DNA from: Escherichia coli
GTDB lineage: Bacteria; Pseudomonadota; Gammaproteobacteria; Enterobacterales; Enterobacteriaceae
Assembly: GCF_044324875.1 (NCBI RefSeq)
Contig: NZ_CP172185.1
Reading direction: 5' to 3' (one strand)
DNA: 64,000 nucleotides
In this document: positions 869 through 47,775 of the stretch, piece by piece
Numbering within the stretch: position 1 is the stretch's first letter
How the letters are laid out: each line of letters opens with the position of its first letter
Notes under the pieces: model-generated
Seen by the model: the letters and a program-made list of their open reading frames with translations, nothing else
The model's database searches: none
What the model was told of the DNA's origin: nothing
Translations under genes and position numbers: made by a program

Positions 869-958
869 GGAGAGATGCCGGAGCGGCTGAACGGACCGGT
901 CTCGAAAACCGGAGTGGGGGCAACTCCACCGGGGGTTCAAATCCCCCTCTCTCCGCCA
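869..958 (+). tRNA. serU: tRNA-Ser (anticodon CGA), 90 nt, long variable arm
   Basis: GGAGAGATGCCGGAGCGGCTGAACGGACCGGTCTCGAAAACCGGAGTGGGGGCAACTCCACCGGGGGTTCAAATCCCCCTCTCTCCGCCA. Anticodon stem CCGGT/ACCGG with loop CTCGAAA gives anticodon CGA. The variable arm differs from the attR copy by two compensatory changes. Confidence 0.9.
898..958 (+). repeat. attL core: 61 bp 3' portion of tRNA-Ser, directly repeated at 47168..47228 with 2 mismatches
   Basis: GGTCTCGAAAACCGGAGT[G/A]GGGGCAACTC[C/T]ACCGGGGGTTCAAATCCCCCTCTCTCCGCCA occurs at both ends of the phage-gene block. Integrase gene lies immediately inside. Confidence 0.75.
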
Positions 959-1003
959 AAATTCAATCACTTATACATCATTAAGTCAGTGACAAAAATC
1001 ACA

Positions 1004-1040
1004 CTTGGAATTACTTGGAATATTTTCTTGGAATATTTTC
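1004..1040 (+). promoter_or_regulatory. Three tandem direct repeats CTTGGAAT(A/T)TT next to attL; putative integrase arm-type binding sites
   Basis: CTTGGAATTA, CTTGGAATATTTTC, CTTGGAATATTTTC in tandem, overlapping the int stop codon. An inverted copy (TTATTCCAAG) lies near attR at about 47113..47124. Confidence 0.4.
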
Positions 1041-2036
1041 AGGTAACGGGACATCAAGTGTTGGTGAAACTTTAACCTTCCGGTCATAGATTAGCACTTG
1101 CCCTTCGGTTTTGTGACCAGAGAAAAGTTGCTTATCCCGGCTGCTTCCTTCATAGTCTGAAATTCCTTTCGCCTTCAGATCATGAAAGGTGAAGTCGGTT
1201 AAAATACCTGAAACTTTGCCTGCGCGATTTCTTGCTTCTACCCACATTTCGTTAAAGCCTTTGTACATATATCGGTTGCCGTATTGATTGCTGATCACAT
1301 AGGCGGATTTTGGTAACTGTTTTGCTTTTTCGACCGCTGCCTGTAATCGTGGACTCCATGCTTTTATCTGTTTTTTCCCTGTTTTCCCTTGCTGGATAAA
1401 GATCCCGTCGTTTCCAATCTGCTCCCATTTCAGCGATAACACATCGGAAACCCTCGCTGCACACAGATAGGCAATTTCCATTGCGATAAAAACAGGAAGG
1501 GGTGCCACGCTTAATACTGCCTGGTATTCTTTGTCGGTTACATATCGTTCGCGGTTTTTGGCCTTGAATTTACTTACTCCTGCACATGGGTTAGCCTTCA
1601 CGTACCCTCGCTCATACCCCCAACTGTAAACACGGGACATACTGCTTTTTTCATGGTTGGCTTGCGTTTTACTCTGTTCCCCTCTTTTGTCCATGTATCG
1701 ACGGATGTGTTCTGGTTTTATGGAATCCGCTGGTACCTTACCGAATACGGCAAGCAACTTTTTTTGATGTTGCAGATAATCTTTTTGTGTTCTTGGACTA
1801 AGGTCACTGTAACAGGCGCTGGCGAGGAATTTTTCCCACAAGCGACCGAATGTCATTGCACGATCGCGATTATTTACAGTTTCCTCATACTTTTTCCATA
1901 AAGCAGCTAAACCATCCTTGATGGCGGTTAGTGTTACAGATTCTCTGGATGTTGGTTTCCATACATAACTATATTTATTTGGGTATACATTTGGAGGTAA
2001 TTTTTCGTGTTCAGGATTTTTCCTTCGTCTTCCCAT
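1011..2036 (-). CDS. int: Tyrosine integrase, lambda Int family
   Basis: 341 aa ORF. N-terminus MGRRRKNPEHEKLPPNVY resembles lambda Int MGRRRSHERRDLPPNLY. Adjacent to the tRNA attachment site. Confidence 0.9.
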   Translation of the reverse strand: MGRRRKNPEHEKLPPNVYPNKYSYVWKPTSRESVTLTAIKDGLAALWKKYEETVNNRDRAMTFGRLWEKFLASACYSDLSPRTQKDYLQHQKKLLAVFGKVPADSIKPEHIRRYMDKRGEQSKTQANHEKSSMSRVYSWGYERGYVKANPCAGVSKFKAKNRERYVTDKEYQAVLSVAPLPVFIAMEIAYLCAARVSDVLSLKWEQIGNDGIFIQQGKTGKKQIKAWSPRLQAAVEKAKQLPKSAYVISNQYGNRYMYKGFNEMWVEARNRAGKVSGILTDFTFHDLKAKGISDYEGSSRDKQLFSGHKTEGQVLIYDRKVKVSPTLDVPLPENIPRKYSK

Positions 2037-2239
2037 CAGATCGCACCAAAATTCGGCTCTACCTCGCGTGGTGGTAAAGTTTTATTGCAGGTAAATAGAT
2101 CCCGGCTGACAATCGGTTTGCCACTACGATTGGTATAGAACGGAAGCCCGTTTTCCATTAACCATTTTCGCTGGTGGCTTGCATATTTGCAGCCCGTTAA
2201 TATTAGCAATTCATCTTCGGTTAAAAATAAGCTGCTCAT
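2036..2239 (-). CDS. xis: Excisionase-like protein (Xis)
   Basis: 67 aa ORF whose stop overlaps the int start. Small basic protein with a DNA-binding-like motif. Position is canonical for xis. Confidence 0.65.
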   Translation of the reverse strand: MSSLFLTEDELLILTGCKYASHQRKWLMENGLPFYTNRSGKPIVSRDLFTCNKTLPPREVEPNFGAI

Positions 2240-2297: not shown

Positions 2298-4751
2298 TTA
2301 AAAATCAGCCTGATTCGGGATCAGTTTTTGTATAGTGGCTGTTACGTATTTTGCCTGGTGAAGAGCGTCATCCAGAGCATTATGGCGCACGCCTTCGAAT
2401 GGAATTACGCTTCTGGCATTGAAGTCTGTGATTTTCCCCATCTCAACGATTGTGCGTACATCACGATCGTTGCTGTAATGCCACGGACAGGGGATGTCCA
2501 GACGTTCGTATGAGGTGCGCAAAATTGCGTTATCGAACGTTGCGCCATTACCCCACACCTGAACGAATTTTTCATCAGAGTGTTCATTGACGAATTGCCG
2601 AAAACGCAAAAGGGCATCTTTCATTTTTACCTGGTCAGTTAAAATGGCAGCTCTGGCTTCGCTGGACTGCTTCAGCCACCATTCGATGGTGCCACCATCA
2701 GGAACAGCCCCTGTATTCATTGCGTCAGTCAGGCTGATAACGATATAAAATACCGGCCCGATTTCCCCTGTTTCCGGGTCGAAGAAAACCGCACCAATAA
2801 CTACTATGGGTGCATTGGTGTTGGCTCCCATTGTTTCAAGGTCGACTGACAGGTGATTCCATACTCTGCTGGTGGATGTGATTTCACGATGACCGTTCAT
2901 CTTAATTAAGGAATTTTCTGTTTCGCCAGTTTTATTATCGCTGGCGTGGCCCTGAGCGCCGCCAGTGTTCTCCTTGTGCGGATGCTCAGTGCCTTCCGTT
3001 TCCTCCGGATTTTTTTCCTGAGATTCAGCCTGATTTTCTCCATTGAATGTTTCCTGGTATGTTGCGTCACCCATTACTGAGCCACAATCAGGGCAGTTGC
3101 CGCCGCTGGTCTGACCGCAGGCGGTGCAGACTTTTTCCGGTTCCTGTTGCGCTACTGGCTCAGGTTGTTTCGTTTCTGGCTCGTTTTGTAACGCATTTTG
3201 GCTGTTTTGTTCCGCTTTCTGGTCGTTCTGTTCCGTTTCTTGCTGGTTCTGGTTCACTGAATCGCGAGTCTGGACTCCCTTAACCCATTTCAGATCATTC
3301 GGGTCGCTAATCCCTTCAACGAACTCACCACGCGAGGCCGCCAGTAATTTGTCTGCATCGACAGGATTTTTGGGCGGAATGTTTTTCCTAGCTTCATGGA
3401 GTTCTGCCCGCAGTTTCTGATATTTCGCATCAACAGAATTCACCTGCGGCTGAGCATCCAGCGGCTGCGTGTCCGGATGATGTTCAGTTGTATCCGGTTC
3501 CACTGTTTCAGTCGTTGGCTGTTCATCTGCCATTGCGCCAGACGGTTGCGGTTTTTCTTCATCATCCTGTTTTCCTTCTTCTGTTACACGCTGCGGCATT
3601 GGGGCAGAGGAACGACCGCAGGCAATATCCACGATTTCCGGATCAGGGTTGGCATGATCGGTTTCGGTCAGCACTTTATTCAAGTATTCGGTGACGCGCT
3701 GGGGCATAGCCTCTATACCAACCGGTGCTTCTTTCACGGAGGCAACCACGATGGCGCGGGAATAATCCATCCCGCCTGGCATGTTCAGAAAAGCCTTAAG
3801 GAAGACGGAGAAACAGGGATCATTTTCTGCGATAATTTCGTTAACACGTCTGGTATGTGAAGGATGCATGTTGTAAATATCCACATCCATCGAACGAGCC
3901 AGTTTTCCTGTAGCAACATCGAATGCCATTGACGCATTATCATGCACAAAACCTTCGCCGCGATCGGTAAGAATACCGCCGCCAGCGTTAGCGCCGGATG
4001 GTGTGCGACTGATGCGAGAAACACGATTTCCTTTCATCCACTCTTTTGTAAGCAGACCACGATCAGTGTAGTCAGCGTCCAGGTATGCTTCGATGAAGGA
4101 GGTCATCAGTCCCAGGTCTGAATTTACGGGGGCGGGAAAAACTTTGTCAGTGTCCCGCACCAGTTTGTACAAATCCCGAATCTCCAGCGGTTCGAGTTGC
4201 GCTGCTTTATTTGAGATGGCCAGCGCGGTAACGGCGGGAAGTTTTTCTTCCTGTGCGTTATGTAATGAGCGCAGTTCATCCCGCGAAACGTGCGTTACTG
4301 GTTTTTCGCCGCCGTGTTGCGCCAGCCAGCGAACAGGCAGAATCTGACCTGAAACCGGCAGAAGCATATTCTCCTCAATCTCAGTCATGTCTTCGCCATT
4401 AACATTGGTGTTGTCAGTGCTGGCTGGTTTGTCCTGCGCGGATGGCGGAGGCGCGATAAATATCATTGTGATGCCATCTTCGCCGCCTTTTTCATACCGG
4501 TTACAGAATTCGGTATCAAACACGCCTTCCGGTGGAAGGTCATCAACAACGGGCAAATGGACGCGAACAGGTTTTTTAAAGTCGTCTTCATCATAATCGT
4601 TATCATCCATTGCGGTAATGCAGCGGGAGATGGCAACAGATAATTTTTTTGCTGTAGTCCAGTAAAAACCACCTTTAATCCCAAGGCGTTTTCTGACTTT
4701 GTCATTTTTAGCTTCGCAATATAGCGCAAAAGTTTCTTTATCAGTGCTCAT
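2298..4751 (-). CDS. Large exonuclease with C-terminal DnaQ-like (DEDD) 3'-5' exonuclease domain; the type often annotated exodeoxyribonuclease VIII in E. coli prophages
   Basis: 817 aa ORF. C-terminal region has DLETMG...H...D motifs typical of DEDDh exonucleases. Central acidic/Gln-rich low-complexity region and an internal CxxC...CxxC zinc ribbon ([16 protein letters not shown]). Confidence 0.75.
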
Positions 4752-45648: not shown

Positions 45649-46110
45649 GATGATCCTGAGTCTTACGGTCGTGAAATATTTGAAGCCTGCATAAGAGGTG
45701 ATGCAGGGCCGGTAGGTGAGTACCGGGCAAATGATGATATGGCTGTGGAAGAAGCACGCAGGATGAAAAACGCGGAGATAAATGCCTGGCGTGATGCGAT
45801 GGAGGCGTCAGGGTATGTTTTTGAGCACAGAGGACGGAAATGGGATTATGGAAAGGAAACCATGACACGTCTTGGAATGTCGGCATCAGCGGCCAGAGGC
45901 GGTGTGTTGCCGGAAGGATTTTTCTGGACGGACGCAGAGAATAATGATGTACCGATGACGGCAGATGAACTGATATCCCTGAGTGATGCTGCTGGTAAAG
46001 CGATGTTCAGGAAAGGCCTTGAAATACATATAAGGCAAAGGGAGATGAAAAAGGCAATAGCAGAACTGAGTGACAGTGAAACCATTCTGGCGTACAGGGT
46101 TGGATGGTGA
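45649..46110 (+). pseudogene. tfa: Tail fibre assembly protein, C-terminal fragment
   Basis: In frame with the N-terminal fragment once the IS and one TSD copy are removed (..ADDPESYGREIFEACIRGDAGPVGEY..); track ORF 45739..46110. Confidence 0.6.
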
Positions 46111-46805: not shown

Positions 46806-47167
46806 AATTCACCACAGCTATAAATTATAAAGAAAACCGCAGCATGTCGTATGCAAGAACGTGCTGCAGCTGGCTGGTTAACTTTCGATAGTGCGAGTAT
46901 TGAATGATTTCCAGCCGTTACCGATTTTATATAACTGCAGTGGAATTATTCAACACAGGCAAAACGGAATAAGCTGAGAAAAAAGCGTACTTTCCCAATC
47001 TGGGGCAAATCACGTCTGAATGACACCTGACAACAGATGGTGGCCTCAAGAAGGCTTGGAATATTCTTCTTTAATGTTATGTAAATTATTGATTTTTCGT
47101 GTACGATTTTAAGACATTTATTCCAAGAAAAATTTTTAACTCTTTGATTTTTCGACTCTGTATCATC

Positions 47168-47228
47168 GGTCTCGAAAACCGGAGTAGGGGCAACTCTACC
47201 GGGGGTTCAAATCCCCCTCTCTCCGCCA
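47168..47228 (+). repeat. attR: partial 3' copy of tRNA-Ser with the host-type variable arm
   Basis: GGTCTCGAAAACCGGAGTAGGGGCAACTCTACCGGGGGTTCAAATCCCCCTCTCTCCGCCA; lacks the tRNA 5' half. Confidence 0.75.
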
Positions 47229-47775
47229 CTTTATCAATGACTTATCTCCCGACTTCCCGCCTTGCTTTTCCTAAACAGAACAATCGTAGAATATTCTTGA
47301 AGGGTTAGATCGTCACTGTTTTCTGTTCGATACTGTGACATTCAGCACTTGATTCGCTATGGATCTGACAGGAAGGTTTCGAGCGAAAATCTGCAATTAT
47401 TCAGTCGTTTTCTTATCGGTCACCATTATTCTTTTAGACATTGATCCTACAAAGCTGCCGCAAAGTTGGTGGTGGGAACTGAAGTTGCGTAGAGAAGTGG
47501 TCAATAATTGAGCAAAAAAAGGAACGCGGCCGTCAGATTAAAGCCGCGGGACAAAGTCCATAATTTCCAAGAGTTGTTGAATTTCCCAGCTTTTTTGAAA
47601 GCCTTCGTATCATACTAACAAGTAAAAAAGGTTTAAATACCAAAATTAACCTATATTTCTGGTTAGCTTTACCATGACAGATGACTTGCTCCTGGAGACA
47701 TTGGCGCAGCCAGTCTGTATTGGTGAGTTGTGTATTTATTGTTCGCCGTTTTCTCAGTTTTTTCTACAGACATAA

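Follow-up and report, generated by a model that had tools for sequence, protein, structure and literature searches.

Five repeats on the attachment arms of a serU-integrated Escherichia coli prophage as probable arm-type sites of its lambda-like tyrosine integrase

The DNA analysed here is a window of 64 kb (64,000 nucleotides) from Escherichia coli, at whose upstream end lies mtfA, followed by an intact serU. A second copy of the final 61 bases of serU (898-958), with 2 differences, is found at 47168-47228, and this duplication at both ends identifies the interval as a 46-kb prophage. serU is intact in the lysogen because the phage supplies the 3' part of the gene. The features discussed in this work are listed below by their positions in the window; arm-type and IHF sites are assigned by prediction.

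869..958, plus strand: serU, tRNA-Ser(CGA), identified with ARAGORN and by the attB/attP/attL/attR comparison
898..958, plus strand: attL copy of the core, 61 bp, common to attR
961..973, plus strand: candidate IHF site H', ATTCAATCACTTA, with one mismatch to the consensus WATCAANNNNTTR
1004..1013, plus strand: probable arm-type site P'1, CTTGGAATTA, overlapping the int stop codon
1014..1023, plus strand: probable arm-type site P'2, CTTGGAATAT, within the last codons of int
1027..1036, plus strand: probable arm-type site P'3, CTTGGAATAT, within the last codons of int
1011..2036, minus strand: int, a 341-aa tyrosine integrase with a predicted lambda-like N-terminal arm-binding domain (about residues 1-60); stop codon at 1011-1013
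2036..2239, minus strand: 67-aa DUF4224 protein in the xis position, adjoining int upstream; DUF4224 is its only Pfam assignment
47055..47064, plus strand: probable arm-type site P1, CTTGGAATAT, at the outer edge of the conserved attP
47082..47094, minus strand: candidate IHF site H1, AATCAATAATTTA, a perfect match to WATCAANNNNTTR in the conserved TGATTTTTC block
47118..47127, minus strand: probable arm-type site P2, inverted, reading CTTGGAATAA on the minus strand; its ATTTATTCCAA block is invariant
47137..47149, minus strand: candidate IHF site H2, AATCAAAGAGTTA, a perfect match to WATCAANNNNTTR in the conserved TTGATTTT block
47168..47228, plus strand: attR copy of the core, which is the displaced host 3' part of serU

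The word CTTGGAAT is found in 6 copies in the 64-kb window, 2.6 being expected; the two serU core copies are flanked by 5 of these, which fall within about 120 bp of att-arm DNA. Three direct repeats had been proposed at attL by an earlier sequence-only reading, and they are found there in tandem on the plus strand (1004-1011, 1014-1021 and 1027-1034), successive copies starting 10 and 13 bp apart. Their sequences are CTTGGAATTA, CTTGGAATATTTT and CTTGGAATATTTT; the consensus given by that reading, CTTGGAAT(A/T)TT, thus holds for the second and third copies, whereas the tail of the first departs from it. The triplet starts 45 bp past the end of the tRNA and not immediately beside the attL core, as had been stated. 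The inverted copy near attR, TTATTCCAAG, is indeed present, but at 47118-47127 (8-mer 47120-47127, minus strand) instead of 47113-47124, and it ends 40 bp, not about 45, before the attR core at 47168. A direct copy, CTTGGAATATTC, at 47055-47062 on the plus strand had been overlooked, which makes the sites five and not four. The sixth copy of CTTGGAAT, at 45871, is located about 1.3 kb inside attR, off the att arms, and this lone copy is consistent with chance.

We reconstructed attP (280 bp) by joining the P arm taken from attR to the core and P' arm taken from attL. The order of elements in the joined site was P1 (-112, direct), an IHF consensus, P2 (-48, inverted), a second IHF consensus, the crossover in the anticodon loop, the 3' half of the tRNA, and P'1-P'3 (+107, +117 and +130). 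Both attP arms carry copies of one word that differs from the core sequence, and in the prophage these copies are divided between attL and attR. When this sequence was shuffled preserving dinucleotides, an 8-mer with 5 copies appeared in 0 of 2000 shuffles and a 7-mer with 5 copies in 2 of 2000; taken together, the copy number and the shuffle controls exclude chance for the att-arm repeats. Two near-matches, GTGGAATT (about 46940) and CGGAATAA (about 46964), were considered as extra sites upstream of P1 and rejected, being absent from the other E. coli P-arm types.

The position of the crossover was mapped by comparing four sequences: the empty site of BL21, an attP-type junction found among E. 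coli viral contigs (L010), and the attL and attR of the window. The two differences between the core copies (913 and 924 versus 47183 and 47194) are compensatory: together they make up a pair of the tRNA variable arm that is G..C in the phage and attL and A..T in the host (BL21 empty site) and attR. This distribution, with the phage pair at attL and that of the host at attR, places the crossover 5' of 915, and strand exchange would be located within 898-915, in the anticodon stem-loop. Since the phage G..C replaces the host A..T, lysogens express a slightly different, still paired tRNA-Ser. The serU-located integrase module was present in 1091 of 5426 complete E. coli genomes, about one fifth, including O157:H7, O55:H7 and O111 strains. 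It was also possible to see a perfect IHF consensus, TATCAATGACTTA, at 47232-47244 (plus strand), in the host DNA right after the displaced serU end and likewise in the BL21 empty site. It resembles the phage ATTCAATCACTTA at the same position of attL (961-973), a likeness by which empty-site genomes align for about 16 bp past the tRNA, and it could be a remnant of past phage traffic through serU. Several other E. coli phages, SerU-LTIIb, ev099, PhiR70_1 and mEp332, matched the query in the serU part only (about 78 bp, 91% identity), without the int region that follows, and presumably carry a different integrase at the same tRNA.

Int residues 1-313 aligned to residues 1-338 of lambda Int (phmmer, E 9.5e-13), with the start MGRRR..LPPN.Y. 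The AlphaFold2 model of Int, obtained from an alignment of 18 sequences (mean pLDDT 87.6), placed ahead of the core-binding and catalytic domains an N-domain with strands at 17-19, 23-26 and 34-38 followed by a helix at 39-59 (pLDDT about 85). The top Foldseek matches of this model were full-length lambda Int chains (353 aligned columns, E 4.7e-16). The curated threshold of Pfam Arm-DNA-bind_1 (PF09003) was not reached in a search with five N-domains of the family, which gave 15.7 bits (E 0.016) and 14.2 bits (E up to 0.045) against a cut-off of 22, and 3 of the 5 had no match at all; by sequence, therefore, the N-domain is a distant relative of the lambda domain. That it is related to the lambda arm-binding domain is supported by the predicted fold and the full-length alignment. 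With regard to catalysis, residues R195, K218, H285, H308 and Y317 align with their lambda counterparts, and K288 (TFHDLKAKG; codons 280-288 at 1173-1199, K288 at 1173-1175, minus strand) aligns with the catalytic R311 of lambda (TFHELRSLS). The same Lys is found without exception in 18 members of the family, whose identities go down to 46%. Activity of the family is evident from the excision of ST64B (PMC12455584) and from other members deposited as complete genomes of phages that had been isolated or induced. This natural Arg-to-Lys change at a catalytic position may merit attention.

An overlap of the repeats with the int stop had also been reported by the earlier reading; it holds for copy 1, which touches the stop codon (1011-1013), while copies 2 and 3, which encode ..ENIPRKYSK, lie inside the last 9 int codons. 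The 13-bp distance from P'2 to P'3 puts the two in different reading frames (NIPR versus KYSK). The Int tail that follows the conserved SPTLD is unrelated among relatives, and in ST64B and KpF5 int ends about 36 bp before the P' sites. The frame shift between copies and the non-conserved tail indicate that the repeat is selected as DNA, and the lack of conservation of the C-terminal tail makes the overlap with the int stop incidental. Homologues of the DUF4224 protein are annotated as excisionase in ST64B, ZF40, mEp390 and Fostie, and we presume that it is the recombination directionality factor. Beyond its gene there is a gene for an 817-aa exonuclease (2298-4751, minus strand), a protein with a long, acidic, Q/E/P-rich low-complexity middle and a length that varies between relatives, which are annotated as exodeoxyribonuclease VIII or 3'-5' exonuclease.

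Of the 7 matches to the IHF consensus in the 64-kb window, 3 fall within 163 bp at this att region, and those of H1 and H2 lie between the arm sites and the core. An IHF consensus at -85/-86 is also present in BUCT708, Evi and mEp390, and sequences similar to H' occupy the same position in ST64B, KpF5 and Chris1. We aligned the P arms of three E. coli types, namely that of the window, the L094/L010 type and the O55:H7 type (L095). From P1 to the core these arms have little similarity, and upstream of P1 they are unrelated, the homology of the E. coli variants ending just upstream of that site. The blocks that remain invariant across the three are GCTTGGAATATTCT (P1), TGATTTTTC, ATTTATTCCAA (P2) and TTGATTTT, and the T-rich blocks TGATTTTTC and TTGATTTT are the cores of the perfect minus-strand IHF matches. 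On the P' side, where 44 E. coli loci represent 14 haplotypes, 2 of 24 columns were variable in the 8-mers versus 22 of 90 outside them, a difference that agrees, weakly, in direction with constraint.

The comparison was extended to distant relatives (46-65% integrase identity), represented by complete phage genomes with an intact attP. Positions were measured from the first base of core homology, which is 3 bases before the anticodon loop in every case, and the register of the words between lineages is ambiguous by 1-2 bp. The relatives compared include ST64B, KpF5, Chris1, BUCT708, Evi, ZF40 and mEp390, with the words GAGAAAA, TTGGTATA, TTAGAATA, TTCCTAATA and TTCGCCAT; the positions found are the following.

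Window: word TTGGAAT; P1 at -112, direct; P2 at -48, inverted; P' at +107, +117, +130
ST64B, KpF5, P7641: word GAGAAAA; P1 at -110; P2 at -48, inverted; P' at +108, +118, +131
Chris1: word TGGTATA (TTGGTATA); P1 at -111; P2 at -48, inverted; P' at +108, +119, +132
BUCT708: word TAGAAT (TTAGAATA); P1 at -110; P2 at -47, inverted; P' at +108, +119, +132
Evi: word TGGTATA; P1 at -111; P2 not found; P' at +107, +118, +130
mEp390: word TCGCCAT; P1 at -111; P2 at -47, inverted; tandem P' copies further out
ZF40: word CCTAATA (TTCCTAATA); P1 at -108; P2 at -47, inverted; tandem P' copies further out
Fostie: word TCATAAT; P1 not found; P2 at -47, inverted; tandem P' copies further out

At least 9 diverged relatives keep the site positions to within 1-2 bp, with the exceptions of P2 in Evi, P1 in Fostie and the P' copies of the phages with a tRNA-Leu core. 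The latter (mEp390, ZF40 and Fostie) have a tRNA-Leu-like core and tandem P' copies behind a hairpin. The inverted copy at -47/-48 was found in 8 of the 9 attP-bearing relatives compared, Evi having none there. The same P' triplet was seen in two prophage junctions, L080 (GTAGAATA) and L082 (GTTGGTATA, tRNA-Ser(TGA)). At least 6 different words are therefore found at the same attP coordinates. The check proposed by the sequence-only reading, conservation of the repeats in related prophages, came out strongly in favour of arm sites: what the relatives keep is the five-copy positions relative to the tRNA core, the word changing with the integrase lineage. A geometry fixed to 1-2 bp with a varying word is what one would expect if the repeats bind a protein and evolve together with it.

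Several other aspects of these loci were recorded. In Evi (L089, about 1820-2340) the whole attP cassette, comprising the P arm, a tRNA-Ser(TGA)-like core, a hairpin and the TTGGTATA triplet, is inverted relative to int, so that int abuts the P arm and not the P' triplet. ZF40, mEp390, Fostie, BUCT708 and L082 have other tRNA targets, either a tRNA-Leu(TAA)-like core or tRNA-Ser(TGA), with the P-arm sites at unchanged distances from the anticodon loop, which suggests target switching by core exchange within a fixed attP scaffold. ST64B shows a 10-bp inverted repeat, CGTGATTTTC ... GAAAATCACG, between the tRNA end and the P' triplet (L003, 778-810), possibly a serU terminator that the phage supplies or a further site for a protein; its counterpart in the window, at 987-1003, is a weak inverted repeat, GTGAC AAAAA TCAC. 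Among the 80 loci of the viral-contig scan, most either differed very little from the window or extended no further than the int stop, and five were set aside because another gene followed int and the tRNA was out of reach. vB_EcoM-606R7 and 689R5 were discarded as sources of attP, since they are near-identical prophage cut-outs with host flanks (mtfA, tRNA-Asn).

The words of the lineages were compared with the N-terminal domain of each integrase. Between the window and ST64B, Int residues 1-60 are 35% identical versus 64% for the rest of the protein. The word TTGG(A/T)ATA goes with the strand motif YSYVWKP or YSYIFKP in the window, Chris1, Evi and L082; TAGAATA goes with YSYYYKP in BUCT708 and L080, whose N-domains are 70% identical; and GAGAAAA goes with SGYYWKP in ST64B and KpF5. 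In these alignments the repeat word is shown to track the fast-diverging N-terminal 60 residues of Int.

Taking into account these observations, the five copies of CTTGGAAT(A) are very probably the arm-type binding sites of a heterobivalent tyrosine integrase, belonging to one attP of about 250 bp. The proposal of integrase arm sites already made by the sequence-only reading gains support from the conserved positions, the E. coli footprint and the lambda-like N-terminal domain of Int. In the mechanism that we propose, the small N-terminal domain of Int would dock on P1, P2 and P'1-3, while its C-terminal domains would bind the core, in the anticodon stem-loop of serU, and cleave it, with IHF-type bends folding the arms onto the core. 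The resulting intasome would integrate into serU and, together with the DUF4224 Xis-like protein, which would bias the reaction toward excision, would excise. Integration would split the set of sites, P'1-3 staying with int at attL and P1 and P2 going to attR. Int binding to the sites, the role of IHF and the role of each site in integration versus excision are what we infer from this arrangement. In the literature on serU/ST64B arm sites and DUF4224 we found no mapping, binding or genetic data for this integrase family.

The protein that recognizes the repeats could instead be the DUF4224 directionality factor, given that tandem direct repeats on att arms are frequent targets of Xis proteins, that the gene is immediately upstream of int and that this protein also diverges between lineages. 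Because of the linkage between int and xis, covariation by itself leaves some doubt in assigning the sites to Int. However, directionality-factor sites are normally on one arm only, and here they are on both arms (2+3) in mixed orientation. Moreover, the word does not follow Xis: the Xis proteins of BUCT708 and ZF40 are 65% identical and those of L080 and ZF40 68%, yet the words are TTAGAATA or GTAGAATA versus TTCCTAATA, and the Int N-domains of these same pairs, unlike Xis, are only 37-42% identical. In Chris1 and Evi a simple scan, which may have its limitations, gave no Xis-like ORF, and the sites are kept. We consider recognition by Xis rather than Int improbable.

Similarly small is the probability we give to a host-factor site or a transcriptional element, such as a terminator or regulator for serU or int, with no role in an intasome. 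The location of P'1-3, shortly after serU and at the int 3' end, would suit such a role, and a weak hairpin spanning the repeats can form in the RNA of 955-1045 (-14.9 kcal/mol, z -1.9). Nevertheless, neither a terminator-like nor a promoter-like site was found in 800-1200 of the window, and a local transcriptional role leaves the attR copies, 46 kb off, unexplained. The word does not match the consensus of IHF, nor that generally described for Fis, and a host-factor site would keep its sequence across phage lineages of the same or close hosts. Regarding a functionless origin by chance or slippage, or a coding repeat in the Int tail, what speaks for it is that the DNA is AT-rich and that, within the int ORF, a 13-bp unit is exactly duplicated in tandem as copies 2 and 3. 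Against it, chance was excluded by the shuffling controls, further copies lie in non-coding DNA at the other prophage end, and the copies are in different frames of a tail that is not conserved as protein. The positions are moreover conserved, with differing words, in relatives with integrases down to 46% identity; conserved positions, footprint and shuffles together effectively refute this origin, to which we give hardly any weight.

If the repeats are the arm sites of Int, the defined attP provides exact prophage borders for annotation and concrete oligonucleotides for binding and excision studies, and explains why unrelated phage backbones have just a cassette of about 250 bp in common. The comparison across the family is also a compact natural data set on how arm-site specificity evolves with the Int N-domain. 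We would only tentatively go further and see in the family a set of naturally occurring arm specificities, orthogonal to one another and placed on a single unchanging attP scaffold, in which 2-3 strand residues of the N-domain (...Y-S-Y-(V/Y)-(W/Y)-K-P...) covary with single bases of the word; the strand residues VW go with TTGGAATA and YY with TTAGAATA. Should this covariation reflect direct base contacts, it would offer a readable recognition code for arm-binding domains and a ready set of non-cross-reacting integrases for genome engineering.

In lambda, attP contains the arm-type sites P1, P2 and P'1-P'3, the IHF sites H1, H2 and H', and sites for Xis and Fis. By comparison, the serU attP also has five arm-type sites, two on one arm and three in tandem next to the 3' end of int, a repeat word unrelated to the core, and IHF-consensus boxes between the arm sites and the core; the N-terminal domains of both integrases are homologous and start with MGRRR..LPPN. 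The lambda-family layout noted in the sequence-only reading is therefore right in the 2+3 count and in the tandem triplet next to int, but it is no simple mirror. The word is CTTGGAATA and not the lambda consensus C/AAGTCACTAT, and the triplet is about 100-135 bp from the crossover instead of about 50-85 bp, since the intervening DNA includes the entire 3' half of the tRNA. Relative to P', the serU attP has P1 in direct and P2 in inverted orientation, whereas both P-arm sites of lambda are inverted. Unlike in lambda, the core is in a tRNA anticodon loop, the presumed directionality factor is a DUF4224 protein by its Pfam assignment, and Int has a Lys (K288) at the position of the catalytic Arg311. 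The serU attP is an ordinary, well-supported lambda-style case, with nothing conceptual beyond the lambda paradigm.

The IntS-TorI module of KplE1/HK620/Sf6 at argW is likewise an enterobacterial prophage module targeting a tRNA, and its experimentally mapped arm-type sites overlap the integrase gene region (PMC2951348). The KplE1 arm sites overlap the intS promoter, leading to autoregulation (PMC2951348), whereas those of the window reach no further into int than its non-conserved 3' tail; the two modules also have different integrase lineages, repeat words and tRNA targets. ST64B shares with the window the integrase family (59% identity), the serU target and the five-site geometry, and differs in its word, GAGAAAA, and in an int that ends before the P' sites. 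Its attP was used as a recombination substrate in a 2025 study in which the arm sites were not dissected (PMC12455584).
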